Shown piece after piece: positions 11,022-30,880 of a stretch of DNA of 64,000 bases; position 1 is the first letter of the stretch, and the number at the start of each line of letters is the position of its first letter. Source of the DNA: a virus. The stretch lies in IMG/VR virus record IMGVR_UViG_3300029554_000001, one strand, 5' to 3'. The notes below the pieces were generated by a model. The model did not search any database. It had not been told where the DNA came from and saw only the letters and a list, made by a program, of their open reading frames with translations. Position numbers and translations under genes: made by a program.

Positions 11022-11050
11022 TTGACAAGAATGAATTTGTATGTTACAAT
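11022..11050 (+). promoter_or_regulatory. consensus promoter TTGACA-17-TACAAT pointing against the leftward block (cassette A)
   Basis: TTGACA 11022-11027, TGT-TACAAT 11045-11050; followed by hairpin 11052-11093; the transcript would be antisense to mini-ORF A. Confidence 0.55.
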
Positions 11051-11111
11051 ACACATAGAGTTAAGAGACCAGTAACCTCTTAACCCTATGTGTTATGTTT
11101 TAATTTAATGT

Positions 11112-11192
11112 TTAGACTTCCATGAAGCCAGTCAAGACAATCACAGAATAATAAACATTAAATCTGTAGTTTATCTGTTTGATTTTCTACAT
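11112..11192 (-). CDS. mini-ORF A, 26 aa if TAG is read: M-Q(TAG)-KIKQINYRFNVYYSVIVLTGFMEV
   Basis: GGAGA SD 8 nt upstream of ATG-TAG; stop TAA; 65% identical to mini-ORF B2; absent from the ORF track because of TAG at codon 2. Confidence 0.6.
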
Positions 11193-11268
11193 GGTCTTTC
11201 ATCTCCTTTCTTCCTTAAGACAAGGGTTTCATTTATATGAACAGCTTACGGGGCTGGAGTTTTAGACA

Positions 11269-15321: not shown

Positions 15322-15386
15322 AATCAATTTTCCTTTCTTAATTAGACAAAATGTTTGTAGTGACTATATATTAAAGGTAGGAGGGA

Positions 15387-19536: not shown

Positions 19537-19602
19537 AAAAATTTCCTTTCCGAGCATTAGCTCTAAACAAATGTATTGTGTTGTTTGATTTAAGATGAGA
19601 TT

Positions 19603-19631
19603 ATTATAAATCCCAAATCCGTAAATGTCAA
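19603..19631 (-). promoter_or_regulatory. leftward promoter TTGACA-17-TATAAT
   Basis: Minus strand reads TTGACA (19631-19626), 17 bp, TATAAT (19608-19603); about 65 bp upstream of 18526..19536. Confidence 0.65.
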
Positions 19632-19658
19632 GTATTTAAACCAAATAAAGTAAATTAT

Positions 19659-19823
19659 TTAGTAAGAATACTTCCAAAGTAAGTCAAAGAGTTCCTTAAT
19701 AAGCTTTTCAGCTTCATCATGGTCTGCTTTGGGCATACAACTATCGGAATTAATATCCTCTTTTAACTTAGCGAGGATGTCGAGATAGCTAAGGTCAGTT
19801 TCGACGGTGGTTTTAATTTTCAT
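19659..19823 (-). CDS. hypothetical 54-aa protein (below the ORF-track cutoff)
   Basis: ATG 19823 follows AAAGGAAA; MKIKTTVETDLSYLDILAKLKEDINSD...; stop TAA. Confidence 0.5.
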   Translation of the reverse strand: MKIKTTVETDLSYLDILAKLKEDINSDSCMPKADHDEAEKLIKELFDLLWKYSY

Positions 19824-19851
19824 TTTGTTTCCTTTCTGTACTAAAAAGTAC

Positions 19852-19880
19852 TTGACAAGATTGATGTTATGTGTTAATAT
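19852..19880 (+). promoter_or_regulatory. consensus promoter TTGACA-17-TAATAT pointing against the leftward block (cassette B)
   Basis: TTGACA 19852-19857, TGT-TAATAT 19875-19880, followed by the long hairpin 19881-19931. Confidence 0.55.
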
Positions 19881-19952
19881 ATGTATAGATGATAAGAAGA
19901 ATCCTATACTTCTTACTTACCATCTATACATCTTCGTAATTAATGTGTGAGA

Positions 19953-20024
19953 TTAATTACGGTTATAGATAATCATTATCTACATGAGATTGTAGAAATA
20001 ATTAACGTAGAAGATTCTCTACAT
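19953..20024 (-). CDS. mini-ORF B1, 23 aa: M-Q(TAG)-RIFYVNYFYNLM-Q(TAG)-IMIIYNRN
   Basis: GGAGGAAAGGAG upstream of ATG-TAG; C-terminus IYNRN shared with C and D. Confidence 0.55.
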
Positions 20025-20147
20025 GGCTTTCAACTCCTTTCCTCCTTAGACAAGGGACAATTATATAACAGTTTATAGGAACTGATTATATTAGAATAAG
20101 AGAATCGCCTATACAATTCTCTTAGTGAATTATTTTAGTTTAAACTA

Positions 20148-20228
20148 TTAAAGTTCGTATGCTCCGCCAAGAACAATAGAACAATAATAAACATTAAACT
20201 AATAGTTTATTTGTTTGACTGTCTACAT
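20148..20228 (-). CDS. mini-ORF B2, 26 aa: M-Q(TAG)-TVKQINY-Q(TAG)-FNVYYCSIVLGGAYEL
   Basis: AAGGAGA SD then ATG-TAG; paralogue of mini-ORF A. Confidence 0.6.
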
Positions 20229-20292
20229 AGACATTCTCCTTTCCATTTAGCACTAATATATAAACAGTTTATAGGAACTGATTATATCAAGA

Positions 20293-20318
20293 AAGAGCAG
20301 GATTTTATTCCTGCTCTT
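20293..20318. terminator. hairpin AAGAGCAGG-attttatt-CCTGCTCTT with the gene's stop codon in its loop
   Basis: Overlaps the TAA of 20305..20484; T-run on the + strand; same design as 11269-11290. Confidence 0.5.
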
Positions 20319-20484
20319 TTTCTATTGTGTACAAATACTGCTTTCGCTTTTCTTTGTACTGCTTATTGATTTTGTACCGATAATTGCCATGAGTCTTACG
20401 CTGGATTCCTTCACAGCGGTCATAGTACATACCATCGTACTGGGGATACTCTGTGATAGCATTGTTAGGTGTACGTTTAGACAT
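20305..20484 (-). CDS. hypothetical basic 59-aa protein
   Basis: ORF track frame; ATG 20484 is 8 nt after GGAGGG and overlaps the end of 20477..22816. Confidence 0.55.
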   Translation of the reverse strand: MSKRTPNNAITEYPQYDGMYYDRCEGIQRKTHGNYRYKINKQYKEKRKQYLYTIEKEQE

Positions 20485-22816
20485 AACTTTTGCCCTCCAA
20501 ACCATATTCTTTAGCATCAAGTTTACTGCTACTTGCACTATAACCTTGACCTTTGTTGAGTACAATGTTTACAGGACATTTAATTCCCTTCTCATGAATC
20601 CAGTTAATTACAAACTTAACTGCATCAGGTTCGTTTCCAAGCCAACGATTGTAAAGTCCATGAATTTGAATGACTTCATTGTGGGTGTTGACTTCAATCG
20701 TAAAGAAAGGAATATCAATATTTTCATTCTTTCTTAAAAATAGAATGTTTGTTCTACCTTCTGCAACACGACTAATATAACCACCAACACAATGATGAAG
20801 ATATACACCTTCTTTCGTAATTTTGTTCATCTCTTCAGGAACAACGATAGAGAAATTATCATCAGCATACTCAAACTTTTCTTTGCGTTGGTCATAAAGT
20901 TTAGCTGCTAACTTATTTAACCTCTCTTGTTCTTCTTTGTTTCTTGCTTCTTTGTCTGTAATGTTGATTTCAATCAGCATATTGTGATAACGATGAAGCT
21001 CATTCACATCTTTACAGGCGTACAAATCAATATTTGGTCTGTTAGTGTTTGAAATTTGCTTAAACAGGTTGAGAGCATCAGAAAAGATTCTGAACACGTC
21101 TTCTTGCTGACCTTTCTTATCGGTTTTTTCCTGAAGACGCATAAGCTTGAGAAGATTCTTTTTATTCTTTTCATTTTGTTCAGGAGTTAATGACTGGATA
21201 TCTCTTTCTTTGTTTATATACAAGCTTTCTTTCCAAGAATTTCTTCTACGAGAATCAAAAGTGTACACACTGTTATTTACTCCAACAAAATACAAAAACT
21301 CACGATAGTTAGAATGAACATTATTCATTCTTTTTGCCATGGTAAAGTAAAAGTCGGAATCTTTGTCAGTAATAGAAGAAAGATTTTTAACGCCAGCAAC
21401 AAATTGAACGATTTCAATTACACATCGAGGAGTATAGGTCGCGCCTGTGTAAATATAAGTTGGACTGTTAGGGCTCTTTTTCTTTTCCTCAAACATCTTA
21501 TCCACCAATTCAAGCTGGTGCTTGTTCATGCCACTAAGCTCATAAATGTTTGCAGATTTAGAATATTTTCTAAATCCAAAAAGATGTTCAATATCAGATT
21601 TTGCAGATGCACTCATGAGATAATTGGCGATGTATTTATATCTAGCTTTGTAAAATTGTTCGATGGCAGGACATCTAAGAGTGTAAATAATCCTGAGAAT
21701 TAAGGAATTTGTTTTAGTCATAATGTCACTATCATTGATGATAGAAGAGATATAAAACAATCTCTTAAACTTAAACATGTCCTCAAAACCTTTGAAGAAA
21801 CAGACATTATCAGAAGGAATTCCAATATCTGAAGAACTGGACACTCTAAATACAACATTTTTACTAAGAGTTGAAGCGGGATTGAAGATTGTTACTTTTC
21901 CCTTGTTGTCAATGAGAATTCGTGTCTGTTCTTCGAACTTGAAATAACCACCAAACTGACGAATGACACAGTAATTTTCATTTAAAATATTAAATGTCCA
22001 AATTGTATCTTTGTATTCAGTGTGGTACTCATTATTCCAAGAGTTTTTAACATCAATGGCCTTCTTAGGATATAACTGACGAAGTTCGTCTAAATTAACA
22101 GTTGGTAAACTATTAACAATTTCAGAAATATCCGCTGATGATTTGGAGACGGTACGAGGATACGCCATTTTATAATAATCAGCGAATGTATAAGGAGTCC
22201 ATTGTGTCCATCTGATTCTCGGATTGCTTTCCTTTTCGGTAAATTCCTCAATTGCTTGAGAAAAATGGAAATGGTAAACAGCCTTATACAAATCATGTTG
22301 AAGGAAATGAACAAATCCTAAACTATAGAATTTACCTCCTTTAGATTTAAATGCGATGTCTCCATTAACATCAAATGGAGCAGGGCAATTCTTGAAAAGG
22401 AAATAACGCTCCATAAAATAGTAGTTTCTTTTCTCTTCAGGAATCTTTCTAATGTTGATTGTCATTATGCCAAATACAAGCATTTCAAATTCAGGGTAAT
22501 ATTTGGCATAAGCAACTTTTGCATTTTTACCAGAACCAACCACAATTGTGTGGGATTGAATATTACTCACATTGAAATGACCAGTTACTCCTTTACGATA
22601 CTGTCCAATAGTATCATTATGCTGAATAATTTCATACTCTCCTCTCAGCAAGTGGAAAGCTTTACCATTTGCTTTCTGTTGCCAATATACAGTGATATCA
22701 GGGCAACTATTAAGATTGGGATTAGCTCCTTCTTTAGTTGAGAGGAACTTTTTTACAGTGGCTTTGTTCTTTTCAATGATTTCGTTGGGAATGTTGTCAA
22801 TGTAAGTGGTGTTCAT
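20477..22816 (-). CDS. large PcfJ-like domain protein (779 aa)
   Basis: C-terminal LHHCVGGYISRVAEGRTNILFLRK...FFTIEVNTHNEVIQIHG parallels 13705..15321; AAAGGAAA SD. Confidence 0.65.
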   Translation of the reverse strand: MNTTYIDNIPNEIIEKNKATVKKFLSTKEGANPNLNSCPDITVYWQQKANGKAFHLLRGEYEIIQHNDTIGQYRKGVTGHFNVSNIQSHTIVVGSGKNAKVAYAKYYPEFEMLVFGIMTINIRKIPEEKRNYYFMERYFLFKNCPAPFDVNGDIAFKSKGGKFYSLGFVHFLQHDLYKAVYHFHFSQAIEEFTEKESNPRIRWTQWTPYTFADYYKMAYPRTVSKSSADISEIVNSLPTVNLDELRQLYPKKAIDVKNSWNNEYHTEYKDTIWTFNILNENYCVIRQFGGYFKFEEQTRILIDNKGKVTIFNPASTLSKNVVFRVSSSSDIGIPSDNVCFFKGFEDMFKFKRLFYISSIINDSDIMTKTNSLILRIIYTLRCPAIEQFYKARYKYIANYLMSASAKSDIEHLFGFRKYSKSANIYELSGMNKHQLELVDKMFEEKKKSPNSPTYIYTGATYTPRCVIEIVQFVAGVKNLSSITDKDSDFYFTMAKRMNNVHSNYREFLYFVGVNNSVYTFDSRRRNSWKESLYINKERDIQSLTPEQNEKNKKNLLKLMRLQEKTDKKGQQEDVFRIFSDALNLFKQISNTNRPNIDLYACKDVNELHRYHNMLIEINITDKEARNKEEQERLNKLAAKLYDQRKEKFEYADDNFSIVVPEEMNKITKEGVYLHHCVGGYISRVAEGRTNILFLRKNENIDIPFFTIEVNTHNEVIQIHGLYNRWLGNEPDAVKFVINWIHEKGIKCPVNIVLNKGQGYSASSSKLDAKEYGLEGKSYV

Positions 22817-22864
22817 TTTCTGAATTTCCTTTCATTTTTAAATTAGTTGATTATGTTGGCTGAG

Positions 22865-23215
22865 TTATTCTTCATCTTTCCATTTGTCATATTCGGGCAT
22901 AGGTTCAACTCCTTCCATTTCTTTTGTTTTTGGATTCCAATAAATTCTTTTGCCACACACACTAGGAGAATAAAAATTATTGCGCCACTCCTTAGTTGCT
23001 TTGTGTTCTGCTCCCATTTTTACAATTAAAACAGGTAAAACAATGAAAATTAATGTGAATAAGTCCACAACGGTAATAGCAATTACTGGGGTAAAAACAA
23101 TGATTACTGGAATATTATAACCGCCAATGTATTTGATTATACACATAACAACTGTAGCTACAACAAGGATGTAATTAAATGTAGCTCTGATATTATTGTT
23201 ATTATTGTTATTCAT
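22865..23215 (-). CDS. membrane protein (poly-Asn N-terminus, 2-3 TM helices)
   Basis: ORF track frame; ATG 23215 follows AAAGGAAA; MNNNNNNNIRATFNYILVVATVVMCII... Confidence 0.6.
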   Translation of the reverse strand: MNNNNNNNIRATFNYILVVATVVMCIIKYIGGYNIPVIIVFTPVIAITVVDLFTLIFIVLPVLIVKMGAEHKATKEWRNNFYSPSVCGKRIYWNPKTKEMEGVEPMPEYDKWKDEE

Positions 23216-23312
23216 TTCTAAATTTCCTTTCTTTAAAGTGGAGAGGGTATATTTCAACCCTCTCCTATTTTGTTGTTAATCTGATGAGAATTTATAGATA
23301 AGTAATTAAGAA

Positions 23313-23825
23313 TTACTCATAATCTTCCTCACAATCCTCATCTTCATCCTTGAAATCATCATACTTACCTGCTAAGTCCTTACGAAGAGCATTGACTGCA
23401 CGAGCTTCAAGGAGAGCCTTAAGAGCCCGTTCATCGAGTTCACAATCAATATCACGAGTGTTGCAGATTTCCTCACCAGCTTCGTCAAACAAAGCTTTCT
23501 TTTCGTAGCTGAGGACACAAGGATAAGTGATACCATCAACCTTAACTTCGAGGACTTCATCAGGGTTGATTTCCTTCTCATTCATAGAGGACTCAAACTG
23601 GGCCTGAGCCATAACCTCCATGACGAGAGCCATGCCAGTCTTGTCACTGTTATTAACAATACGCTGAATAACAGCAAGACCAGCTTCACGGTCGCGGTCA
23701 TTGACAGAACCCATGCAGCCGCATTTAATTCCGTCGATATAAAGGAATTCCATGTTAGTGCTGTTTTCCTTCATGAGCTGGACGCGATTGAGGGACTTCT
23801 TGGTGTTGATGTTGATGTTAGCCAT
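23313..23825 (-). CDS. hypothetical protein with a very acidic C-terminus
   Basis: ORF track frame; ATG 23825 (MANININ) follows GAGAAAGG. Confidence 0.6.
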   Translation of the reverse strand: MANININTKKSLNRVQLMKENSTNMEFLYIDGIKCGCMGSVNDRDREAGLAVIQRIVNNSDKTGMALVMEVMAQAQFESSMNEKEINPDEVLEVKVDGITYPCVLSYEKKALFDEAGEEICNTRDIDCELDERALKALLEARAVNALRKDLAGKYDDFKDEDEDCEEDYE

Positions 23826-23934
23826 AATAGACCTTTCTCTCGTGGGTTTTAATGTCTTTTTCCTTGACAAATTTATTGAGCTTAAAGGCTCATTAAAGTG
23901 CAGGATATATTTCAATCCTGCGCTCTATCAACCT

Positions 23935-24141
23935 TTACGGCTTTTCAATCAGGTCTTTTATTTGAGCTCTTAAACAAATTAAAGTGCCGATTCTTGTGCA
24001 ACAATAACTAATATCTGCATTATTACCTTGGGATTTAGCTTCTTTTGCATTTTCAATTTCAATGTCCATCGCTTGTAACAACTCATACCTTGCTTGCTTG
24101 AGGAAATAGTCTGCTCTACCCTGATGAGTCTTGTTATTCAT
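23935..24141 (-). CDS. hypothetical protein, tandem paralogue of 24157..24342
   Basis: ORF track; shared pattern R..Y.L.[QK]A..E......I....C..IG.L..L. Confidence 0.6.
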   Translation of the reverse strand: MNNKTHQGRADYFLKQARYELLQAMDIEIENAKEAKSQGNNADISYCCTRIGTLICLRAQIKDLIEKP

Positions 24142-24156
24142 ATTAATTGTTCTCCT

Positions 24157-24342
24157 TTAGAGTTCTTTGATGATATCATTTGCATAATTTTTCAGTGCTA
24201 CAAGAACACCGATTTCCGTACAAATTGGCTCGATATTACTCTCAGGATTAAAAGCGATACGGTCTTTCAATCTCTGAGTTTCCTCTTCGATTGCTTTCTG
24301 AAGAAGATATTCAGTACGGTTGGTTAGATAAGTTTTATCCAT
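24157..24342 (-). CDS. hypothetical protein, tandem paralogue of 23935..24141
   Basis: ORF track; AAAGGAA SD. Confidence 0.6.
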   Translation of the reverse strand: MDKTYLTNRTEYLLQKAIEEETQRLKDRIAFNPESNIEPICTEIGVLVALKNYANDIIKEL

Positions 24343-24388
24343 AATTTTAATTCCTTTCTTAATTAAAATGCAAAATATATTTTAACCT

Positions 24389-24715
24389 TTAGAAGTTAAG
24401 AGCAGGGACAGTAAGCAGATACATATTCCAGTAATCCCAATTTTTGTTAAGTTCTTTTAAAAGATGAGAAGGGCTGATTCTCCAATCAGGAGATGTAGGG
24501 ACACCATTATCTTCCAATTGGTCAACAAGTTTAATCTTGTTAAGAAGAAGAAATTCTTCCAGTTTCTCCTTATTGATTTTATTGAAGCCATCTTTCTGAA
24601 TACATACAGCCCACATAATATTCTCCACAACTGTTCTATGGTTGGAAGAATAAACAGGGTAGAAATTGACTCCATCATGGGCAACGAGGACGTAGTTATA
24701 AGTCTGATTAGTCAT
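24389..24715 (-). CDS. hypothetical protein
   Basis: ORF track; GAGGAGGA SD. Confidence 0.65.
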   Translation of the reverse strand: MTNQTYNYVLVAHDGVNFYPVYSSNHRTVVENIMWAVCIQKDGFNKINKEKLEEFLLLNKIKLVDQLEDNGVPTSPDWRISPSHLLKELNKNWDYWNMYLLTVPALNF

Positions 24716-24717
24716 AG

Positions 24718-24882
24718 TTAAAAATCCTCCTCTTCCTGAGCGTCAGTAGCTTCAAAATCATCAGACCAAGTAATATCTTCTTTACCATAGCCCTCGACCT
24801 TGGCAAAAGCATCATTTTCAGATTCGGCTTCAACCTGAACAAAGCCATAACGAGCAAACGTGACATTGTAAATCTTTTTCAT
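24718..24882 (-). CDS. hypothetical acidic 54-aa protein (below the ORF-track cutoff)
   Basis: ATG 24882 follows AAAGGAAA; MKKIYNVTFARYGFVQVEAESENDAFAK...; stop TAA 2 nt before the next ATG. Confidence 0.55.
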   Translation of the reverse strand: MKKIYNVTFARYGFVQVEAESENDAFAKVEGYGKEDITWSDDFEATDAQEEEDF

Positions 24883-24917
24883 AGTATTATTTCCTTTCTT
24901 AATTCAGATGTTTAAAA

Positions 24918-25220
24918 TTAGATTTCGATTTCAAAGATTTTGCCATCCCAGTTATCATGGTTAGTAGTTTCAGCCCATGCACAAGTACCCTCGAAGTTGT
25001 TCTCGTCATCGAAAATGTCATTATCAATGAGAGAATCAATAGCTTTTTCAAGCTCTTCTTTTGTAGTGACAACATACTTATTATAATCATCTGCATCAAG
25101 ATGCCGACAAGCCTCAAGAAACAAATTGAACAAGTGAATCTGAGCTTTCTCCATGGTATCAAAGAAATAAGGATGACCAATCTCACGTTCGCAAGTATCA
25201 GTGACCATAAACTTCTTCAT
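24918..25220 (-). CDS. hypothetical acidic protein, paralogue of 17195..17497
   Basis: ORF track; see the paralogue. Confidence 0.7.
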   Translation of the reverse strand: MKKFMVTDTCEREIGHPYFFDTMEKAQIHLFNLFLEACRHLDADDYNKYVVTTKEELEKAIDSLIDNDIFDDENNFEGTCAWAETTNHDNWDGKIFEIEI

Positions 25221-25311
25221 AATTTTCTTTCCTTTCTTAAATCACAAATGTTGTTTAGTTCTCATCAATGCAAAAGCAACTTGTATCAGAATCAACTTTA
25301 TTATTGGTTAT

Positions 25312-25340
25312 ATTATACTTTCCTTTCTTAATGGTGTCAA
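25312..25340 (-). promoter_or_regulatory. leftward promoter TTGACA-17-TATAAT
   Basis: Minus strand TTGACA (25340-25335), 17 bp, TATAAT (25317-25312); back-to-back with the rightward promoter at 25369. Confidence 0.65.
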
Positions 25341-25368
25341 GTATTTAAAAAGAAATTTTACAAACTAC

Positions 25369-25397
25369 TTGACAAGTGTTGTGATTTGTGTTATATT
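25369..25397 (+). promoter_or_regulatory. consensus promoter TTGACA-17-TATATT pointing against the leftward block (cassette C)
   Basis: TTGACA 25369-25374, TGT-TATATT 25392-25397, followed by hairpin 25398-25441. Confidence 0.55.
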
Positions 25398-25466
25398 ACA
25401 CTCATCAAGCAAGGTATGTAACTTTTACTTGATGAGTGTAGGTTTTACAATACCTGTAACTGTGGA

Positions 25467-25538
25467 TTAGTTACGATGGTACACGATACGAACGACCGAG
25501 ATTTGTCTATCCATATCAACATGTAAAATTTTCTACAT
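25467..25538 (-). CDS. mini-ORF C, 23 aa: M-Q(TAG)-KILHVDMDRQISVVRIVYHRN
   Basis: AAGGAGA SD then ATG-TAG; stop TAA. Confidence 0.5.
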
Positions 25539-25637
25539 ATTAATTTCTCCTTTCGTGAGTAATTATGTAAACAGGCTTTACAGGAGTCTGGTGTCTTAAG
25601 TAAGACTGGTAGTTAGTAGCTACCAGTCTTTTCTCTT

Positions 25638-26570
25638 TTACTTCTTATAAACCATAAAGGTGAGAAGATAATCACGAATCTTTTCAGCGGGATGTCCTTC
25701 ATGCTCTTCAATCTTGTCCTGAGCAACACGAACAAACTCATCACAGCTCTTATACTGCTTAAGGTTCAGCAGAAAATAGTTGAATGCTTTGGTATCCTCA
25801 CAGTGCTTGTAGCAAGCAGAAATTCCTGCCAACATGCGCTGAGTATAAACCATATCATCCTTCCAACCAGTCCCCTGAAGAACAGCGAACACAAAACGAA
25901 GAGCGTTTTCACCATCGCGTTTAACAATACGATACAGCTCTTCAATTGCATTGATATTGTTATAGCGGTTAATGGTGCTATTGCGATTGGTCTTAACAGT
26001 CAGACCAAATTCCTTTGTGACCTGATTGATAATTACTGCTGTAGGCTTCTTGGCACAAAGTTCAGCTTTATATCTTTCATAGCCACGAAGATTGGTCTTA
26101 CCCTCGTTCTGAGTAGCAAACAAATCTGCTTCTTCTTCCAGAGTAAGATTGATAAATACTTTGCAAGTGATAGCATAGATGGGGAAGCCTTTACTCTGCA
26201 TATAAAGCAGAGCACTCAAGGTATGAGCCCCATCCATAAGAAACAGATGCCAAGTATTACCAACTTTACGAATAGAAGCCGCTTTAATTTCAACCTTGTT
26301 GATATTAAAGTTGTTGGTAATTTTAGCTACTTCATAGTTTTTGGGTTCGCGCTGATAGTGCAAGTCAATTTCAGGCATAAAAAGAGGAATGTCTCTAATA
26401 GCCCAGTTACGACCATCTTCTCTCTTTTCAATCTCCCTTTCCACAGAGAGCTTAAAGGCATAAACGGTCTTGGACTGTTCATTGGTGATTGCTTTGGGCT
26501 TAAGTGCATCGAACAGGACTTCACTGACGGACTTTTCGTTCTTGATGTTGGTGAGATTAATCTTCTTCAT
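25638..26570 (-). CDS. ParB/sulfiredoxin-like nuclease-domain protein (tentative)
   Basis: HYQREP followed by LFLMDGAHTLSAL resembles the ParB N-terminal DGxHR-type core; AAAGGAA SD. Confidence 0.5.
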   Translation of the reverse strand: MKKINLTNIKNEKSVSEVLFDALKPKAITNEQSKTVYAFKLSVEREIEKREDGRNWAIRDIPLFMPEIDLHYQREPKNYEVAKITNNFNINKVEIKAASIRKVGNTWHLFLMDGAHTLSALLYMQSKGFPIYAITCKVFINLTLEEEADLFATQNEGKTNLRGYERYKAELCAKKPTAVIINQVTKEFGLTVKTNRNSTINRYNNINAIEELYRIVKRDGENALRFVFAVLQGTGWKDDMVYTQRMLAGISACYKHCEDTKAFNYFLLNLKQYKSCDEFVRVAQDKIEEHEGHPAEKIRDYLLTFMVYKK

Positions 26571-26613
26571 GATTCTAAATTCCTTTCAAGTTAAAAAAGT
26601 TTGTAGTTATCAC

Positions 26614-26642
26614 TTGACAGATATTATCAAGTGTGCTAAGAT
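26614..26642 (+). promoter_or_regulatory. consensus promoter TTGACA-17-TAAGAT pointing against the leftward block (cassette D)
   Basis: TTGACA 26614-26619, TAAGAT 26637-26642, followed by hairpin 26646-26677. Confidence 0.5.
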
Positions 26643-26693
26643 AAACACAAGTAGAAAGCCTACACTCTCTACTTGTGATGCAATTAATACGGA

Positions 26694-26765
26694 TTAATTA
26701 CGATTGTAAATGATGAAGACTATTATTATAGACCAATAATAGTCAACTGCTAAGATTTTCTACAT
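26694..26765 (-). CDS. mini-ORF D, 23 aa: M-Q(TAG)-KILAVDYYWSIIIVFIIYNRN
   Basis: AAAGGAG SD then ATG-TAG; hydrophobic core; stop TAA. Confidence 0.6.
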
Positions 26766-26892
26766 AGCAAAACTCCTTTCTAATTTAATAATACATTAAT
26801 TCATTGTAGGCTAAATTAATGTGCGAGTGAATAAGTTGGGCTTAAACACTCTATTGAGGGATGGAAGTTATTTTCCATCCCTCTAACAATGT

Positions 26893-27087
26893 TTAAACTC
26901 TTTCAACCTTATAAGGCTTGCAAGCAACAACATCGAAATTGTTTACAAGCCAGTCAGGTTTGGTTTCTTTAGTATTAAGGAATTTACAAACAATGTTTGC
27001 AAGCACTTCACTGTTAAATACAGTTTTTTCCTTCATACTCATTGTAACTGTTACGGATTTTCCGTATTTGTTTGTAATCTTAAACAT
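26893..27087 (-). CDS. hypothetical 64-aa protein
   Basis: ORF track frame; ATG 27087 follows GGAGGTG and overlaps the upstream stop. Confidence 0.55.
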   Translation of the reverse strand: MFKITNKYGKSVTVTMSMKEKTVFNSEVLANIVCKFLNTKETKPDWLVNNFDVVACKPYKVERV

Positions 27088-27394
27088 GCCACACCTCCGT
27101 CTTGATGCCCTTACCGTTATAATAACGACGAGCACCATAATTGGCTCTGTCACTGAAGCACTCAGCACAAGGAATTAATTCCTTACGCTTTCCCTCCTTG
27201 ATTTCCTTGAGTGAAAGATTGAAGCACTGTTCAACCTCACACTTATCACACATCTTACAGGATTTACCCTTGCAAATGTTTTCGCAGAAGTTGTTCTTAA
27301 CTTTGCAGAGATGCTTAATACCCCAAGAGGAATTCATCTCAGCTAAGGTCTGGTCGAGAGTGTAGTTATGACCTATAACACTAATCTTTTTCAT
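27080..27394 (-). CDS. Cys-rich hypothetical protein
   Basis: ORF track; AAAGGAG SD; CENICKGKSCKMCDKCEVEQC. Confidence 0.65.
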   Translation of the reverse strand: MKKISVIGHNYTLDQTLAEMNSSWGIKHLCKVKNNFCENICKGKSCKMCDKCEVEQCFNLSLKEIKEGKRKELIPCAECFSDRANYGARRYYNGKGIKTEVWHV

Positions 27395-27457
27395 TTTACT
27401 TTGACTCCTTTCAAGTCTGTATTAAATTTAATTTTAAATTTGTCTTAAGCTATATGG

Positions 27458-27790
27458 TTAGAAACAAATACGTTTCTTTTTGATTTTGGTAAGCATCCAA
27501 CACCAAGGATTTCCAAAATCATCTTCAAGAGGAGTAACCTTAATGGTTACAAGCACCTCAGTACTAAGATGCTCAAGGATATAATCCAAATTCTTAAGAG
27601 AGAAAACATATCTTTCTTTTGTATCATCTTTAGTGCTTTTTGCGCACCATTTAATGATTTCTTTCAAGCCCGAATCAATCAGGCAGTTCAGGTTCCCATA
27701 AGTGTCAAGCGTTTTATTAAGAGAAGGTGCTTCTAAATGGGTAGGATTGTTGGTGAGAGAGCGAACGGTGTTTTTTAATTTCTTGGACAT
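27458..27790 (-). CDS. hypothetical protein
   Basis: ORF track; AAAGGAAA SD. Confidence 0.65.
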   Translation of the reverse strand: MSKKLKNTVRSLTNNPTHLEAPSLNKTLDTYGNLNCLIDSGLKEIIKWCAKSTKDDTKERYVFSLKNLDYILEHLSTEVLVTIKVTPLEDDFGNPWCWMLTKIKKKRICF

Positions 27791-27826
27791 TTTCTTTATT
27801 TCCTTTCTTTTGTTGATTATTGATAT

Positions 27827-28018
27827 TTACACTTGCTTAAGATACTTAAGGTTTAATTCTAATTTGGAATCCATTGTTAAGCCATTTTCGCGCTTGATTC
27901 TGCCACACAAGTTATTCAAAGCTTGTTTCTCAGAAGAAGCCGTGGTATAACCAGAAAAATGGCAATAATAGTTATACCATCTGGTTACGGGACCATCGTA
28001 GTAATATTTGAGTTTCAT
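27827..28018 (-). CDS. hypothetical 63-aa protein
   Basis: ORF track frame; ATG 28018 follows AAAGGAGGTG. Confidence 0.6.
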   Translation of the reverse strand: MKLKYYYDGPVTRWYNYYCHFSGYTTASSEKQALNNLCGRIKRENGLTMDSKLELNLKYLKQV

Positions 28019-28037
28019 ATATACACCTCCTTTCAAC

Positions 28038-28283
28038 TCAAATAAAATTGAAAACTTTACACTCTTCATGGACATAGCCTCCAAGAACTTCAGGACAGGA
28101 CTGGAAATAACCAGATGCATCCTGAATGTGGATGAGAATGGTATCGTCCATATTTAATGAACCTTTGCGCACTTTTGCTCTAAGCGAGCGACGAATTCGT
28201 TCCCAAATGTTGCACTTTTCTTCGAATACATCATAGATGACTTTGCCATCCTTTTTGACATATCCACTATACCATCTTGTCAT
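28038..28283 (-). CDS. hypothetical 81-aa protein
   Basis: ORF track frame; start moved to ATG 28283 (MTRWYSG); the upstream part of the track ORF overlaps the cassette E promoter and hairpin. Confidence 0.55.
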   Translation of the reverse strand: MTRWYSGYVKKDGKVIYDVFEEKCNIWERIRRSLRAKVRKGSLNMDDTILIHIQDASGYFQSCPEVLGGYVHEECKVFNFI

Positions 28284-28289
28284 AACTAC

Positions 28290-28318
28290 TTGACACCCTC
28301 CTTTTGTTGTGTTATAAT
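28290..28318 (+). promoter_or_regulatory. consensus promoter TTGACA-17-TATAAT pointing against the leftward block (cassette E)
   Basis: TTGACA 28290-28295, TGT-TATAAT 28313-28318, followed by hairpin 28323-28360. Confidence 0.55.
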
Positions 28319-28366
28319 ACCTAATAAGAAAAGTGGTTGACCAATCCACTCTTCTTATTAAATTGA

Positions 28367-28522
28367 TTAGTCTAAGTCTAACTTAGATATATCTATCTGG
28401 AAGAATTCAATCAGCTATTCAACACTTAGGTGTTGCATGTACCAATTAAATTCAAACTCAGAAGTGATATACTACTTCAGAATAGAACCAATCTTTGCTT
28501 TATTACTAAGACTATCCTACAT
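28367..28522 (-). CDS. mini-ORF E, 51 aa with four TAG codons: M-Q(TAG)-DSLSNKAKIGSILK-Q-YITSEFEFNWYMQHLSVE-Q-LIEFFQIDISKLDLD
   Basis: AAAGGAGG SD then ATG-TAG; hydrophilic and unlike the other nine; open only if TAG is read. Confidence 0.4.
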
Positions 28523-28663
28523 GAATTCCTCCTTTCTTTTAACTCGTTAGTGTTGTGACTAACTTGTTATTCGTTATCTTATTGGTCAGATAAGATAGAG
28601 TCTTAGCTGCAACTAAGCACTCTATGAAGGGTAGGAGCATATGTTCCTACCCTTTAACAATGC

Positions 28664-29005
28664 TTAGATGTTATCCCACTGATTAGTGATGAAATTAAAG
28701 CATCGAACAGTTCCACCAATCTTTTTCTCCCAGCGGGGGTTGTTTTTGTTCAATGTATAAGTGGCAAGGCGACTTTTAGCAGCCGTGACAATAATATCAT
28801 ACTGACCGAGTTCCTGAAGAGACTTGATATAGTTCATGAGTTTGACATCATTTTCAAATTCGATGTCAATTGTTCTGGAAGCACTGACAATATCAGTGCA
28901 ATGGTCATCCACACCTTCAGGTTTCCACCCCTGTTCAAAGTGGCTGATAATAGAATCAATATCATAGATGCAGATGCGTTTAACAAACTTAACAGTGTAA
29001 TTCAT
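28664..29005 (-). CDS. hypothetical protein
   Basis: ORF track; AAAGGAAAA SD. Confidence 0.65.
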   Translation of the reverse strand: MNYTVKFVKRICIYDIDSIISHFEQGWKPEGVDDHCTDIVSASRTIDIEFENDVKLMNYIKSLQELGQYDIIVTAAKSRLATYTLNKNNPRWEKKIGGTVRCFNFITNQWDNI

Positions 29006-29034
29006 TTCTTTTTTCCTTTCTGTTTATAAAAGTC

Positions 29035-29063
29035 TTGACAAGCACAATTTCATGTGTTATACT
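29035..29063 (+). promoter_or_regulatory. consensus promoter TTGACA-17-TATACT pointing against the leftward block (cassette F)
   Basis: TTGACA 29035-29040, TGT-TATACT 29058-29063, followed by hairpin 29073-29104; possible end at hairpin GGAGAGAT/ATCTCTCC plus T-rich tail near 29257-29290. Confidence 0.55.
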
Positions 29064-29122
29064 TGTTATTAGAATAAGAGAAGTGCCTACACACCTCTCT
29101 TATTAATAAGCTTTTATTCTTC

Positions 29123-29197
29123 TTAGAAATTATAGTTCTTTAGAATTACAACTACAACGACGTTTAAAGAATAATTGACTGAAATAATCTTCTTCAT
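29123..29197 (-). CDS. mini-ORF F, 24 aa, the only copy without TAG: MKKIISVNYSLNVVVVVILKNYNF
   Basis: AAGGAGG SD; codon 2 is AAG; differs from G2 and H mostly at third codon positions. Confidence 0.65.
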   Translation of the reverse strand: MKKIISVNYSLNVVVVVILKNYNF

Positions 29198-29326
29198 TGT
29201 TTTACCTCCTTAAGAAGATAAAAGCAAACAAGGATGTAGGTCCTTATTCACTACAGAGGAGAGATGTGGGGATATCTCTCCTTCTGTTATATTTGAGTAG
29301 TTTAACGACTTGCTCAGGTCGAGAGG

Positions 29327-29734
29327 TTAGTTCTGATAATCGTCAGAAACTAATACCCATTCTTCCCCATTACTATCAATAAGATGAATGGTTGTTCTAT
29401 CCTCACTGATAGTTACATTCTGAAGATTAGAGAACCAATCCTCAGTTGTTGTGTAGCTATCCTCAACTCCTTTGTTATAACCAGCGTTATATGCACCAGT
29501 TACGTCTTCGTTAGTGAAGACTTCTGCTGGTGCACTTTTACTGTAATCAATATGGTCAAGAATAACAGCGATTCCAATCGCAAGGACAACTACCAGAATA
29601 AACATAGCTCTGGGATTCATGCTCTTATTTTGAGCTATTGCTTCAAGATTAATAACAAGACCGTACACAATCATGATAGCAACAATAGCAATAGCAACAA
29701 TGGTAACATTGGTAATATTGATAAACATCTTCAT
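29327..29734 (-). CDS. membrane protein (two TM helices)
   Basis: ORF track; the SD spacing fits the second ATG (29728) better; NITNVTIVAIAIVAIMIVYGLVI and MFILVVVLAIGIAVIL. Confidence 0.65.
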   Translation of the reverse strand: MKMFINITNVTIVAIAIVAIMIVYGLVINLEAIAQNKSMNPRAMFILVVVLAIGIAVILDHIDYSKSAPAEVFTNEDVTGAYNAGYNKGVEDSYTTTEDWFSNLQNVTISEDRTTIHLIDSNGEEWVLVSDDYQN

Positions 29735-29762
29735 TTCCTTTCTGGTTTTTTACGTCTTTTCC

Positions 29763-29791
29763 TTGACAAACAATTATTTATGTGTTATTAT
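29763..29791 (+). promoter_or_regulatory. consensus promoter TTGACA-17-TATTAT pointing against the leftward block (cassette G)
   Basis: TTGACA 29763-29768, TGT-TATTAT 29786-29791, followed by hairpin 29802-29819. Confidence 0.55.
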
Positions 29792-29837
29792 AATGATGAG
29801 AAGGTTGCCTACACAACCTCCTTAATGCATAATTATC

Positions 29838-29912
29838 TTAGAAGTTGTGATTCTTCAAGATAATCATACTAACTATGCCGAGAACATAGTCAATAAATGT
29901 TATTTTCTACAT
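29838..29912 (-). CDS. mini-ORF G1, 24 aa: M-Q(TAG)-KITFIDYVLGIVSMIILKNHNF
   Basis: AAGGTGA SD then ATG-TAG; stop TAA. Confidence 0.6.
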
Positions 29913-30056
29913 TTTATCACCTTTTCATAATTTAATACTTAATTATAAATTATGTAGGTAATCTATAATTAAGCAGACTGCTTATTGCGACTAAGCACTC
30001 TATAAGATAGAGGAAGATACTCTTATCTTCCTCTACCCTAACAATGCTTATTATGC

Positions 30057-30131
30057 TCAGAAGTTATAATTCTTCAGTATGGCAACTGTTACAACATTAA
30101 GAGCATAATTTACGGAAATCGTTTTCTACAT
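30057..30131 (-). CDS. mini-ORF G2, 24 aa: M-Q(TAG)-KTISVNYALNVVTVAILKNYNF
   Basis: AAAGGAGG SD then ATG-TAG; stop TGA. Confidence 0.6.
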
Positions 30132-30219
30132 GATGATTTCCTCCTTTCCGAGTGCGATTTGGATTACTAAGCACTCTATTAAGCCCACCATCAATTACGA
30201 TGATGGGCTTTAACAATGC

Positions 30220-30390
30220 TCAGATAGGGATACAAATAACATATCCATCATCCAAGAATCGGGGATAAAGCTTATTCTTATTGAGAAGCTTATCTCCAAT
30301 CTCTTTTGCTTCCTCCTCATTAGAGGCAGACACGAATACTGTATCACAACCACTAATGATGGAAGTGATATATTTGACTTTGTATGTCAT
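30220..30390 (-). CDS. hypothetical 56-aa protein (below the ORF-track cutoff)
   Basis: ATG 30390 follows AAAGGAATAAAAG; MTYKVKYITSIISGCDTVFVSASNEEEAKEIGDKLL...; stop TGA. Confidence 0.55.
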   Translation of the reverse strand: MTYKVKYITSIISGCDTVFVSASNEEEAKEIGDKLLNKNKLYPRFLDDGYVICIPI

Positions 30391-30417
30391 TTTCTTTTAT
30401 TCCTTTCTATAAAAGTC

Positions 30418-30446
30418 TTGACAAATACAACTTTATATGTTATACT
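30418..30446 (+). promoter_or_regulatory. consensus promoter TTGACA-17-TATACT pointing against the leftward block (cassette H)
   Basis: TTGACA 30418-30423, TGT-TATACT 30441-30446, hairpin 30457-30486; candidate end at GGGACACTT/GAAGTGTCCC plus TTTTGCTTTGTTT (30650-30686). Confidence 0.6.
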
Positions 30447-30509
30447 TGTTGTTGTAGTAAGAAAGATGCCTATACACCTTTCTTACAAAAAGAGTGATTA
30501 TTAACCTTA

Positions 30510-30584
30510 TCAGAAGTTATAATTCTTTAGGACGAGAATCGTAACAACATTTAAAGTATAATCTATTGTAATTATCTTCTACAT
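30510..30584 (-). CDS. mini-ORF H, 24 aa: M-Q(TAG)-KIITIDYTLNVVTILVLKNYNF
   Basis: AGGAGG SD then ATG-TAG; stop TGA. Confidence 0.6.
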
Positions 30585-30739
30585 TTATTACCTCCTGAAG
30601 ATTGATAGAAGTACTTATCAATATAGGTTAATAAGCACTACAAAACATTGGGACACTTGTTCGGAAGTGTCCCTTTTGCTTTGTTTGGAGAAAGGCTATT
30701 TGTTTATACTCGTTAACCTTCCAGAACGAGTTGGATGAG

Positions 30740-30880
30740 TTAAATGTGGCGAATGTACCACATGAAACCCTTCTTACCTCCTGTGCATCTGTAGATGATG
30801 TACATGGAAGTAAGGCTGATAACACCAGCGATAGCAATGATACTACCAATGATGCTAACAATGAAGATAGCTTCCATCAT
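30740..30880 (-). CDS. small single-TM membrane protein (46 aa)
   Basis: ORF track frame; ATG 30880 follows AAAGGAGG; MMEAIFIVSIIGSIIAIAGVISLTSMYIIYRCTGGKKG... Confidence 0.55.
   Translation of the reverse strand: MMEAIFIVSIIGSIIAIAGVISLTSMYIIYRCTGGKKGFMWYIRHI

Follow-up and report, generated by a model that had tools for sequence, protein, structure and literature searches.

Complementary hairpin loops bracket amber-containing mini-genes opposed by predicted antisense RNAs in a gut jumbo phage: a candidate 5'-3' kissing-loop lock

In hok/sok, the 5' and 3' ends of the small-toxin mRNA pair with each other (fbi/tac), which blocks both translation and antisense binding, and in ibs/sib the whole ibs ORF is covered by Sib. 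Loops of 6-7 nt that are complementary throughout, as in HIV TAR-TAR* and ColE1 RNA I-RNA II, form stable kissing helices. Type I loci typically occur in tandem and encode small, hydrophobic toxins whose C-termini are polar or bulky (PMC2887945). AapA1 mRNA folds into a self-locked form that IsoA1 recognises via two kissing loops; kissing is followed by duplex extension and RNase III cleavage, and specificity among paralogues comes from the loop sequences (PMC5416894). In recoding phages, early genes avoid the recoded codon, and an in-frame TAG blocks translation until the phage suppressor system is active (bioRxiv 10.1101/2021.08.26.457843).

Here we analysed a window of 64,000 nucleotides (the whole stretch of DNA under study) from a gut jumbo phage in which TAG, a stop codon in the standard code, encodes an amino acid. 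The window holds about ten tiny toxin-like genes, each with an opposing predicted antisense RNA, and by sequence the cassettes resemble type I toxin-antitoxin modules. Every cassette carries, on its minus strand, a Shine-Dalgarno (SD) site and a hydrophobic ORF of 23-26 codons (51 codons in cassette E); its plus strand was computed to hold a strong promoter of the sigma70 type together with an intrinsic terminator. The promoter follows a conserved consensus, TTGACA-17-TGnTAnnnT, with invariant hexamers and variable spacers among relatives, and the predicted antisense RNA of 220-440 nt spans the ORF, the SD and both hairpins. In the ORF-sense RNA, the SD-ORF unit lies between two conserved hairpins, one preceding the AUG by ~45 nt and the other following the stop by ~20-30 nt. 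Their apical loops match each other by Watson-Crick complementarity across 6-8 nt, and the partners are separated by ~150-250 nt of the same RNA, in most cassettes by ~150-170 nt. The predicted features are as follows (x in peptides, TAG).

11022..11050, plus: A antisense promoter, TTGACA-17-TGtTACAAT
11051..11093, minus: A downstream hairpin hp1', sense loop GUUACUGGU (UUACGGG in relatives)
11112..11192, minus: A mini-ORF, MxKIKQINYRFNVYYSVIVLTGFMEV
11242..11256, minus: A upstream hairpin hp2', CAGC-CCCGUAA-GCUG, one mismatch to the window hp1' loop
11268..11291, plus: A antisense-RNA intrinsic terminator
19852..19880, plus: B antisense promoter
19884..19928, minus: B1 hp1', sense loop UAUAGGA (plus-strand CCTATA 19903-19908)
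19953..20024, minus: B1 mini-ORF, MxRIFYVNYFYNLMxIMIIYNRN
20063..20091, minus: B1 hp2', sense loop CCUAUA (plus-strand TATAGG 20074-20079)
20097..20124, minus: B2 hp1', sense loop UAUAGG (plus-strand CCTATA 20108-20113)
20148..20228, minus: B2 mini-ORF, MxTVKQINYxFNVYYCSIVLGGAYEL
20258..20287, minus: B2 hp2', sense loop CCUAUA (plus-strand TATAGG 20270-20275)
20290..20321, plus: B antisense-RNA terminator
25369..25397, plus: C antisense promoter
25397..25440, minus: C hp1', sense loop with UUACAUA (UUACAGG in relatives)
25467..25538, minus: C mini-ORF, MxKILHVDMDRQISVVRIVYHRN
25572..25591, minus: C hp2', sense loop CCUGUAA
25602..25630, plus: C antisense-RNA terminator
26614..26642, plus: D antisense promoter
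26646..26677, minus: D hp1', sense loop UGUAGGCU (plus-strand AGCCTACA 26657-26664)
26694..26765, minus: D mini-ORF, MxKILAVDYYWSIIIVFIIYNRN
26793..26822, minus: D hp2', sense loop AGCCUACA (plus-strand TGTAGGCT 26805-26812)
26847..26891, plus: D terminator hairpin, conserved flanks CACTCTAT...AACAATG
28290..28318, plus: E antisense promoter, perfect TTGACA-17-TATAAT with TG
28322..28360, minus: E hp1', sense loop AUUGGUCAA (plus-strand TTGACCAAT 28337-28345)
28367..28522, minus: E ORF, 51 codons including 4 TAG, non-hydrophobic
28576..28596, minus: E hp2', sense loop CUGACCA (plus-strand ATTGGTCA 28581-28588)
28618..28662, plus: E terminator hairpin, conserved flanks
29035..29063, plus: F antisense promoter
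29073..29104, minus: F hp1', sense loop UGUAGG (plus-strand CCTACA 29086-29091)
29123..29197, minus: F mini-ORF, MKKIISVNYSLNVVVVVILKNYNF, codon 2 AAG, without TAG
29223..29252, minus: F hp2', sense loop CCUACA, 3 G.U in stem (plus-strand TGTAGG 29235-29240); then an anti-SD/SD hairpin
29256..29283, plus: F antisense-RNA terminator
29763..29791, plus: G antisense promoter
29799..29822, minus: G1 hp1', sense loop UGUAGG (plus-strand CCTACA 29808-29813)
29838..29912, minus: G1 mini-ORF, MxKITFIDYVLGIVSMIILKNHNF
29936..29975, minus: G1 hp2', sense loop CCUACA (plus-strand TGTAGG 29953-29958)
29996..30046, plus: G1 terminator hairpin, conserved flanks
30057..30131, minus: G2 mini-ORF, MxKTISVNYALNVVTVAILKNYNF, without loop pair or own antisense promoter
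30172..30218, plus: G2 terminator hairpin, conserved flanks
30418..30446, plus: H antisense promoter
30457..30486, minus: H hp1', sense loop UAUAGG (plus-strand CCTATA 30469-30474)
30510..30584, minus: H mini-ORF, MxKIITIDYTLNVVTILVLKNYNF
30610..30639, minus: H hp2', sense loop CCUAUA (plus-strand TATAGG 30622-30627)
30650..30673, plus: H antisense-RNA terminator, T-rich on both sides, possibly bidirectional

We found no sense promoter dedicated to the mini-genes, so each is apparently part of a polycistronic early RNA, unlike most known type I toxin mRNAs, which are discrete transcripts. SD-sequestering hairpins occur in F- and H-type cassettes. Searches of Pfam, PHROGs and Rfam gave no sequence similarity to type I loci of the ibs/sib or ldr/rdl kind. 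The name 'toxin' is not apt for every member, the cassette E product being 51 aa long, acidic and non-hydrophobic.

The mini-ORFs are under purifying coding selection, with pN/pS values of 0.26, 0.43 and 0.33 in the ORF frame versus 0.49-1.27 in the five other frames. Of 132 peptides, 99 (75%) use TAG as codon 2 and none has CAA or CAG there, and internal TAG positions alternate with CAA/CAG. The late genes of the phage are TAG-recoded, with TAG read as sense: in-frame TAG is abundant in the late plus-strand genes, and early genes have zero in-frame TAG and zero TAG stops. The ATG-TAG start of the mini-ORFs contrasts with this avoidance in the other early genes. No suppressor tRNA was found in the phage DNA searched.

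An initial annotation had placed complementary loop pairs around seven mini-ORFs, and all 14 loop strings lie exactly where it put them, each within the apical loop of a predicted hairpin; comparison bore out that the stems of a cassette's two hairpins are unrelated. Loop bases are mostly unpaired in full-length folds (probability 0.4-1.0 versus a transcript mean of 0.3-0.4). We compared 77 distinct cassette sequences, taken from the window and from close relatives: in 69% of them the 82 nt preceding the ATG include 6 nt or more complementary to the downstream loop, always at -43 to -67, versus 4.1% in mononucleotide shuffles of that stretch, statistics that overstate independence because the cassettes are related sequences. 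The reverse complement of the upstream stretch, taken as a control, gave 4/77. A larger set comprised 225 variants of the cassette, drawn from related ~215-kb phages that come mainly from human gut metagenomes; 199 of them (88%) match the downstream hairpin loop by 5 or more complementary nucleotides at about -45 from the ATG, and 152 (68%) have 6 or more complementary nucleotides. When hairpins were anchored without regard to complementarity, by CC in the upstream and GG in the downstream loop, pairing was a perfect 6/6 in 115 of 135. Loop complementarity is far beyond chance.

Cassettes A, C and G2 had been described as lacking an obvious pair, which is true of the G2 type, but A and C carry a decayed one: TTACTGG versus CCCGTAA in A and TTACATA versus CCTGTAA in C, with intact CCCGTAA/TTACGGG and CCTGTAA/TTACAGG in relatives. 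Judging from these loops, A and C are degenerate members rather than exceptions. A recognisable pair is absent in ~12% of cassettes (the G2 type and some of the KHRN type in L096 and L031), so the lock proposed below would be dispensable in some contexts. The long-range stem reported within the A and B2 ORFs (e.g. 11101-11113 with 11152-11164) is real and partly conserved.

Homologues strengthened the case for covariation, extending three loop classes to seven, each with its exact partner: CCUACA, CCUAUA, CCUGUA(A), CCCGUA(A), CCCACA, UCCGUG and UGACCAAU. Most fit one degenerate motif, CCYRYA. Three core pairs vary (UA22/CG8, AU23/GC7, CG15/UA14, with 1 non-pair cell) and none shows a one-sided change; 0/500 shuffles reached the observed score, and no slid register came near the observed pairing. 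Since the classes cut across peptide families, the switches occurred repeatedly and independently and are not one inherited change. Loops that switch together in classes would be expected of a loop-loop (kissing) helix across the SD and mini-ORF, and a physical contact is inferred on this basis. Several cassettes of one genome share a loop class, so that cross-pairing between cassettes is possible.

The initial annotation held that the pairing suits transcripts of either strand. The loop pairing is indeed symmetric, but the strand can be inferred from the asymmetric stems, in which G.U pairs on the ORF-sense strand become A.C mismatches on the other. Folding of both strands gave a more stable sense (minus) strand in 13/15 window hairpins, owing to G.U pairs, and RNAalifold on 42 diverse cassettes yielded -24.1 kcal/mol for sense versus -3.1 kcal/mol for antisense, the sense consensus having at least 2 Watson-Crick types at 14/21 pairs and 167 G.U cells. 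Given these stems and modelled energies, the conserved hairpins probably sit on the ORF-sense RNA. Taken alone, the all-Watson-Crick loop helix is compatible with either strand and also with pairing between two separate RNA molecules.

With confidence slightly above even, we propose that a 5'-3' kissing-loop lock acts on a mini-gene that is also antisense-controlled and amber-gated. The two loops would kiss within one molecule, as a helix of the fully paired hexaloop type, joining the 5' end of the mini-gene RNA to its 3' end. The closed form and local SD sequestration would jointly give a compact, poorly translatable message with both ends protected, and would occupy both loops, otherwise entry points for the terminal hairpins of the antisense RNA. 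That RNA, transcribed by host RNA polymerase, would be a second lock, and the UAG at codon 2, a start-stop under the standard code, a third, with peptide synthesis only after the phage turns on amber suppression late in infection. If the lock reading holds, the peptides would be delayed until then; our guess is that they serve membrane damage or lysis timing. Kissing contact, antisense RNA and peptide activity are all predictions from sequence.

The loops could instead be mere kissing entry sites between mRNA and cis-antisense RNA, in the style of AapA1/IsoA1 or CopA/CopT, their within-strand complementarity being functionless, for example through reuse of one favourable 6-bp helix at both sites in opposite orientation. 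We consider this rather improbable. The conserved antisense promoter and terminator would suit it, the antisense terminal hairpins are complementary to the sense hairpins by construction, and kissing loops set the specificity of known type I systems (PMC5416894). Yet cis-antisense pairing needs no match between loop 1 and loop 2, which should drift independently without a contact, whereas they switch jointly through seven classes, including the unrelated UGACCAAU, and only the sense strand shows selection on the stems. Absence of G.U from the kissing helix in the seven common classes is expected if both strands need the helix; one natural variant, CCUGCA/UGUAGG, keeps it solely as G.U on the sense strand.

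Less probable still is a selected contact in the plus-strand antisense RNA, its 5' loop kissing its 3' loop to close the sRNA and set its stability or activity. Plus-strand loop complementarity is equally perfect, the loops are predicted to be highly accessible (0.4-1.0), and in the predicted sRNA hp1 forms the 5'-terminal hairpin. However, conserved A.C mismatches in the plus-strand stems take the place of the G.U pairs of the minus strand, and the antisense consensus reaches only -3.1 kcal/mol. B2 also retains its pair without an antisense promoter of its own, its hp1 being internal to the antisense transcript, which places the pair with the ORF module rather than the antisense-RNA 5' end.

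We give very little credence to a DNA- or protein-level feature, whether inverted repeats for recombination or cruciforms that move or invert cassettes, or two CCYRYA protein-binding copies on both strands. The cassettes are modular and their presence differs among relatives, identical hp2 hairpins bound the B2 indel, and the degenerate motif covers most classes; but known recombinases need more than a 6-8 bp repeat set in hairpins that are otherwise unrelated, the cassettes have no associated recombinase, position-by-position covariation and the unrelated UGACCAAU and UCCGUG classes are incompatible with a single protein site, and strand-asymmetric G.U pairs point to a single-stranded transcript. 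Chance, or shared ancestry without pairing constraint, is disfavoured to the point of being scarcely credible: the cassettes are phylogenetically related paralogues with only seven classes, but complements of at least 6 nt occur in 69% of them against 4.1% of shuffles, at constant position and with no slid register coming close to the pairing seen, and both loops changed together several times across peptide families.

Among known systems, E. coli ibs/sib (also ldr/rdl) resembles the phage cassettes in its very small hydrophobic ORFs (~19-35 aa) whose C-terminal end is polar or bulky, an opposite-strand sRNA over ORF and SD, and several diverged, partly tandem copies per genome (PMC2887945). 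The phage cassettes differ in being carried by a phage within early operons, without a detectable toxin promoter and with TAG as codon 2, and in a mini-ORF predicted to be closed by a co-varying loop-loop pair. We know of no description of such closure for ibs/sib. The recoding timer likewise involves avoidance of the recoded codon in early genes, but its description covers structural, lysis and homing-endonuclease genes (bioRxiv 10.1101/2021.08.26.457843); a fixed codon-2 TAG in antisense-controlled mini-ORFs of a standard-code early region is absent from that work and was not found elsewhere in the literature searched. The mRNA of aapA1/isoA1 from Helicobacter pylori is also self-folded into an untranslatable form, with two stem-loops whose apical loops mediate antisense kissing. 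Its lock, however, is a linear 5'-3' pairing freed by 3' processing, its kissing is intermolecular and both loops lie in the 5' UTR, whereas the phage loops are complementary to each other within one RNA and flank the ORF. As in hok/sok, the phage message is predicted to be closed by 5'-3' end contact; hok uses a linear helix of terminal single strands and a leader ORF, mok, where we predict a hairpin-loop kiss, and the host range differs. The phage hairpins, like hexaloop kissing complexes, are complementary over whole 6-7-nt loops, but TAR-TAR* and ColE1 contacts are intermolecular or engineered, whereas the phage partners lie on one RNA.

The initial annotation had proposed that hairpins with mutually complementary loops bracket the mini-ORFs of seven cassettes (B1, B2, D, E, F, G1 and H), and that these loops co-vary between cassettes. 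All fourteen loop sequences were recovered exactly at their positions and, as expected of kissing loops, both partners of a pair are apical in predicted hairpins and Watson-Crick complementary, while within a cassette one stem bears no relation to the other, as had been claimed. Partition-function folding of entire cassette transcripts predicts loop bases that are for the most part unpaired (0.4-1.0 versus a mean of 0.3-0.4).

We gathered 232 distinct cassette sequences, encoding 141 peptides, with patterns that contain no loop sequence. Of 225 family members, 199 contain a stretch of 5 nt or more that is complementary to the loop of the downstream hairpin, in every case located between -40 and -70 relative to the ATG. 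The proposed covariation between cassettes was borne out by seven loop classes, each with its exact partner:

Loop class 1: CCUACA with UGUAGG
Loop class 2: CCUAUA with UAUAGG
Loop class 3: CCUGUA(A) with (U)UACAGG
Loop class 4: CCCGUA(A) with (U)UACGGG
Loop class 5: CCCACA with UGUGGG
Loop class 6: UCCGUG with CACGGA
Loop class 7: UGACCAAU with AUUGGUCA

The three variable core pairs are UA22/CG8, AU23/GC7 and CG15/UA14 (30 distinct loop contexts), with 1 non-pair cell in 90 and not a single one-sided change, a pattern of compensatory covariation across homologues that a kissing loop should leave. The observed pairing score was reached by 0 of 500 shuffles, all slid registers collapse, and pairing is perfect over six positions in 115 of 135 cases when anchored independently of complementarity. 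The loop classes cross three peptide families, and five of them occur within the ...YNRN/KHRN family; therefore, both loops have been switched together several times. Rare uncompensated variants exist (CCUACA/GGUAGG, CCUACA/UAUAGG and UCCGCG/CCCGGA), as does one G.U variant (CCUGCA/UGUAGG). Cassettes A, C and G2 had originally been described as having no obvious pair; a pair is indeed absent from the G2 type and from a few KHRN-type cassettes, but A and C proved to be decayed copies, carrying one and two mismatches, of pairs that are intact in relatives. When genome contigs were scanned with the cassette pattern, the only family members among 120 rows of matches were loci L096 and L200. The pattern also matches a widespread phage tRNA gene behind a sigma70-type promoter, whose pseudo-peptide 'MxDDEFESP...' (x, TAG) appears at L010, L012, L013, L019 and many more loci and is unrelated to the cassettes.

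The pairing had also been held unable to tell which RNA is functional. This is correct for the loop helix, which is symmetric, but not for the stems, which are asymmetric and favour the sense (minus) strand carrying the Shine-Dalgarno (SD) site and mini-ORF. The minus-strand version is the more stable one in 13 of 15 window hairpins, because a G.U pair there becomes an A.C mismatch on the plus strand. For 42 diverse cassettes of the 24-aa class, RNAalifold yielded a sense consensus of -24.1 kcal/mol with both hairpins recovered, at least two Watson-Crick types in 14 of 21 pairs and 167 G.U cells; the reverse complement reached only -3.1 kcal/mol. Furthermore, B2 keeps its pair with no antisense promoter of its own, which likewise assigns the structure to the ORF-sense RNA. 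The conserved structure thus sits on the sense RNA.

On the opposite strand, eight strong predicted promoters, in each of which 17 nt separate TTGACA from an extended -10, lie in a region whose protein genes are exclusively on the minus strand:

11022, plus strand, antisense promoter of cassette A
19852, plus strand, antisense promoter of cassette B
25369, plus strand, antisense promoter of cassette C
26614, plus strand, antisense promoter of cassette D
28290, plus strand, antisense promoter of cassette E
29035, plus strand, antisense promoter of cassette F
29763, plus strand, antisense promoter of cassette G
30418, plus strand, antisense promoter of cassette H

Downstream of each promoter, in plus-strand order, come the hairpin at the 5' terminus (hp1), mini-ORF and SD in reverse complement, a second hairpin (hp2) and an intrinsic terminator, and units B and G each cover two mini-ORFs. 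The predicted antisense RNAs measure ~220-440 nt; each unit thus has a predicted sRNA gene equipped with promoter and terminator, as in a type I toxin-antitoxin locus. Both signals are conserved in relatives, where the promoter hexamers are invariant and the spacers variable. For the sense RNA, the stretch from the upstream gene to the SD contains no sigma70-type promoter, and the toxin promoter and discrete stable message of a type I locus appear to be lacking. The mini-gene module seems to be co-transcribed with the early genes; a sense promoter for a phage RNA polymerase may be an alternative. Two candidate sense promoters were rejected: the CCTAYA loops as -10 boxes have no consistent -35 and would leave the covariation unexplained, and ATAGAGTGCTTAG as a late or phage-polymerase promoter is confined to cassettes D, E, G1 and G2, with none upstream of late genes.

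The antisense terminators of these four cassettes, at 26847-26891 (D), 28618-28662 (E), 29996-30046 (G1) and 30172-30218 (G2), share the frame CACTCTAT-N3-[GC hairpin]-YTAACAATG, enclosed by an outer helix that differs in a compensatory manner (TAAGCA/TGCTTA in E, G1 and G2; TTAAACA/TGTTTAA in D). The frame is missing from the other terminators and upstream of late genes, and may represent a separate motif, either a structured RNA or a site for protein binding. Perfect minus-strand TTGACA-17-TATAAT promoters diverge from the antisense promoters at C and B (25312-25397 and 19603-19880), back to back at C (gap ~30 nt) and ~220 nt apart at B, which places cassettes B and C at operon boundaries. 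The B2 unit (20092-20257) is wholly absent from some relatives (L004 and L006 compared), and two identical hp2 hairpins border the indel, indicative of cassette gain and loss by recombination between the cassettes' own hairpins. At the H position, ORFs are swapped inside identical hairpin frames between the window and L004 and L006.

Apart from cassette E, whose product is acidic and 51 residues long, the ten minus-strand mini-ORFs encode peptides of 23, 24 or 26 residues with a hydrophobic core and polar or aromatic C-termini (...IYNRN, ...LKNYNF, ...GFMEV). The top 11-aa Kyte-Doolittle window is 1.3-2.6 in eight of the ten; the products of C and E are not hydrophobic. In size and hydrophobicity the other eight resemble type I toxins, which are membrane-active peptides of less than about 60 aa. 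Among 164 distinct ORFs in three short length classes, pN/pS is 0.26, 0.43 and 0.33 in the annotated frame and 0.49-1.27 in the five other frames, and entropy peaks at third codon positions. These coding signatures indicate that the mini-ORFs are translated, TAG codons included. The ten peptides gave zero Pfam matches at E up to 10 and a single PHROGs match (E = 0.14); Rfam returned nothing at gathering threshold for the window and one chance-level match (E = 0.74) for 19700-30800 searched up to E = 1. No similarity was found to the known type I families Ibs, Ldr/Fst, TxpA and Hok or to Rfam antitoxin RNAs. The ORF bodies themselves are highly structured: the long-range stem noted earlier in A and B2 was confirmed as 11-13 bp in ORFs of the 26-aa class (11101-11113 with 11152-11164; B2, ~20140-20215) and is maintained through compensatory changes by the ...GFMEV and B2 subtypes, its place being taken in the ...GFLEL subtype by two local hairpins.

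Nine of the ten window mini-ORFs start with ATG-TAG. In a search with no constraint on codon 2, 132 distinct family peptides had TAG (99), AAR (24) or Ser, Arg or His codons (9) at that codon, and CAA or CAG in none (0/132). At internal positions, TAG alternates with CAA/CAG, and this alternation, the sole basis for the assignment, suggests that TAG encodes Gln. In the early region, in-frame TAG is confined to the mini-ORFs. AUG-UAG would act as a start-stop in the host code, with the peptide presumably made only under active amber suppression. One further ATG-TAG candidate, at 498 on the plus strand, was discarded as having no cassette architecture; it lies within a region of short tandem direct repeats at 395-440, 610-650 and 800-860 (ctgttgatagtg x3, gtagtcgatatatcg x3 and about five copies of (t/g)tttgatatca). 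The repeat sets, iteron-like in pattern and shortly before a strong promoter on the plus strand at 1070, could mark a replication origin, or a partition or packaging site.

The window comes from a phage genome of low GC content (~33%) with Firmicutes-type expression signals (GGAGG SD sites and TTGACA-17-TGnTAnnnT promoters). Its close relatives are ~215-kb jumbo-phage contigs from IMG/VR and human-gut assemblies, and megablast found no nucleotide match to 19800-30700 among GenBank phages. Early minus-strand genes (13705-15327, 18526-19557, 20477-22816 and 25638-26570) encode two PcfJ-like proteins, one DUF932 and one DUF6551 protein, families usually associated with conjugative elements and their leading regions. 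Cassette mini-ORFs apart, the protein genes at 4.3-36.4 kb, all on the minus strand, contain zero in-frame TAG; the plus-strand genes at 36.7-61 kb form long ORFs only with TAG as sense, at 1-7 in-frame TAG each. TAG as a stop is absent from both sets. Judged by this gene pattern, the phage is TAG-recoded (code-15-like) with early genes in the standard code, an arrangement already described in gut phages (bioRxiv 10.1101/2021.08.26.457843). No tRNA, and hence no amber-suppressor tRNA(CUA), was found in this 64-kb portion of a ~215-kb-type genome or in 29 related loci. The plus-strand ORF 37727-39742, with one in-frame TAG, matches the Pfam RdRP family PF05183, the two-barrel RNA polymerases that include YonO and the crAss-phage RNAP; the phage probably supplies an RNA polymerase of its own that transcribes later in infection. 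Two paralogous GIY-YIG homing-endonuclease-like ORFs (48336-49055 and 49719-50570, plus strand), with 5-6 in-frame TAG each, resemble the TAG- or TGA-gated homing endonucleases of recoded phages (bioRxiv 10.1101/2021.08.26.457843). A PDB search with such a TAG-containing ORF for the amino acid at TAG gave an alignment spanning no TAG position.

On balance, we lean towards a mechanism in which a kissing helix between two loops of one sense RNA closes its SD-ORF segment. This lock would act jointly with local sequestration of the SD, and further layers would be formed by the cis-antisense RNA and by the amber gate at codon 2. Computation has yielded the parts of the model, the covariation and the strand preference, together with the coding signal and the bias towards TAG. 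From them we infer a physical contact between the loops, effects on translation and RNA stability, late timing and an activity of the peptide. Kissing between two RNA molecules only would use the same loops and is rather unlikely, as it leaves unexplained why the two loops of a cassette change in step. That the antisense sRNA closes on itself, as the symmetric loop helix would allow, is contradicted by the stem asymmetry, and we consider it improbable. A site acting at the DNA level or bound by a protein has very little to recommend it next to a structure that sits on the sense RNA, and it is scarcely credible that chance or shared ancestry produced loops that switched class together.

Building on the intramolecular lock, it is possible, though short of probable, that the cassettes sense the genetic-code switch. 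Closed mini-gene RNAs, made early and resistant to nucleases and ribosomes, would be stored kissing-sealed, with silence also kept by the antisense RNA and the AUG-UAG start-stop; amber suppression would then release some ten membrane-active peptides together. The joint release might serve as a trigger late in infection, setting the time of lysis or shutting off the host, for instance.

In the searchable literature, we found no account of a co-varying intramolecular loop-loop lock, of a fixed TAG at codon 2, or of such cassettes lying within early operons of a jumbo phage that is recoded. If the cassettes do sense the code switch, no earlier riboregulatory toxin-like module would have been tied to the reassignment of a stop codon, and no earlier natural 5'-3' kissing-loop lock would be known on this kind of mRNA. 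The model, if right, would join three so far separate fields: it would give type I riboregulation a new kind of lock, a kissing helix within one RNA whose specificity classes occur naturally, and code-changing phages a very direct, testable timer in the codon-2 TAG, and it would bear on the biology of human-gut jumbo phages, which are abundant and uncultured. Specialists would be surprised by the amber gate and the natural orthogonal set of kissing pairs, and the whole model is directly testable with short in vitro transcripts and simple reporters; the seven loop pairs would serve as ready-made RNA-engineering parts.

In their predicted working, the cassettes are like type I toxin-antitoxin loci, but a dedicated toxin promoter, a common type I feature, appears to be missing. 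Multi-copy ibs/sib comes nearest in layout and aapA1/isoA1 in logic, while the fold-back of hok and the 5'-3' folding of AapA1 (PMC5416894) are locks of analogous purpose to the proposed kissing helix.
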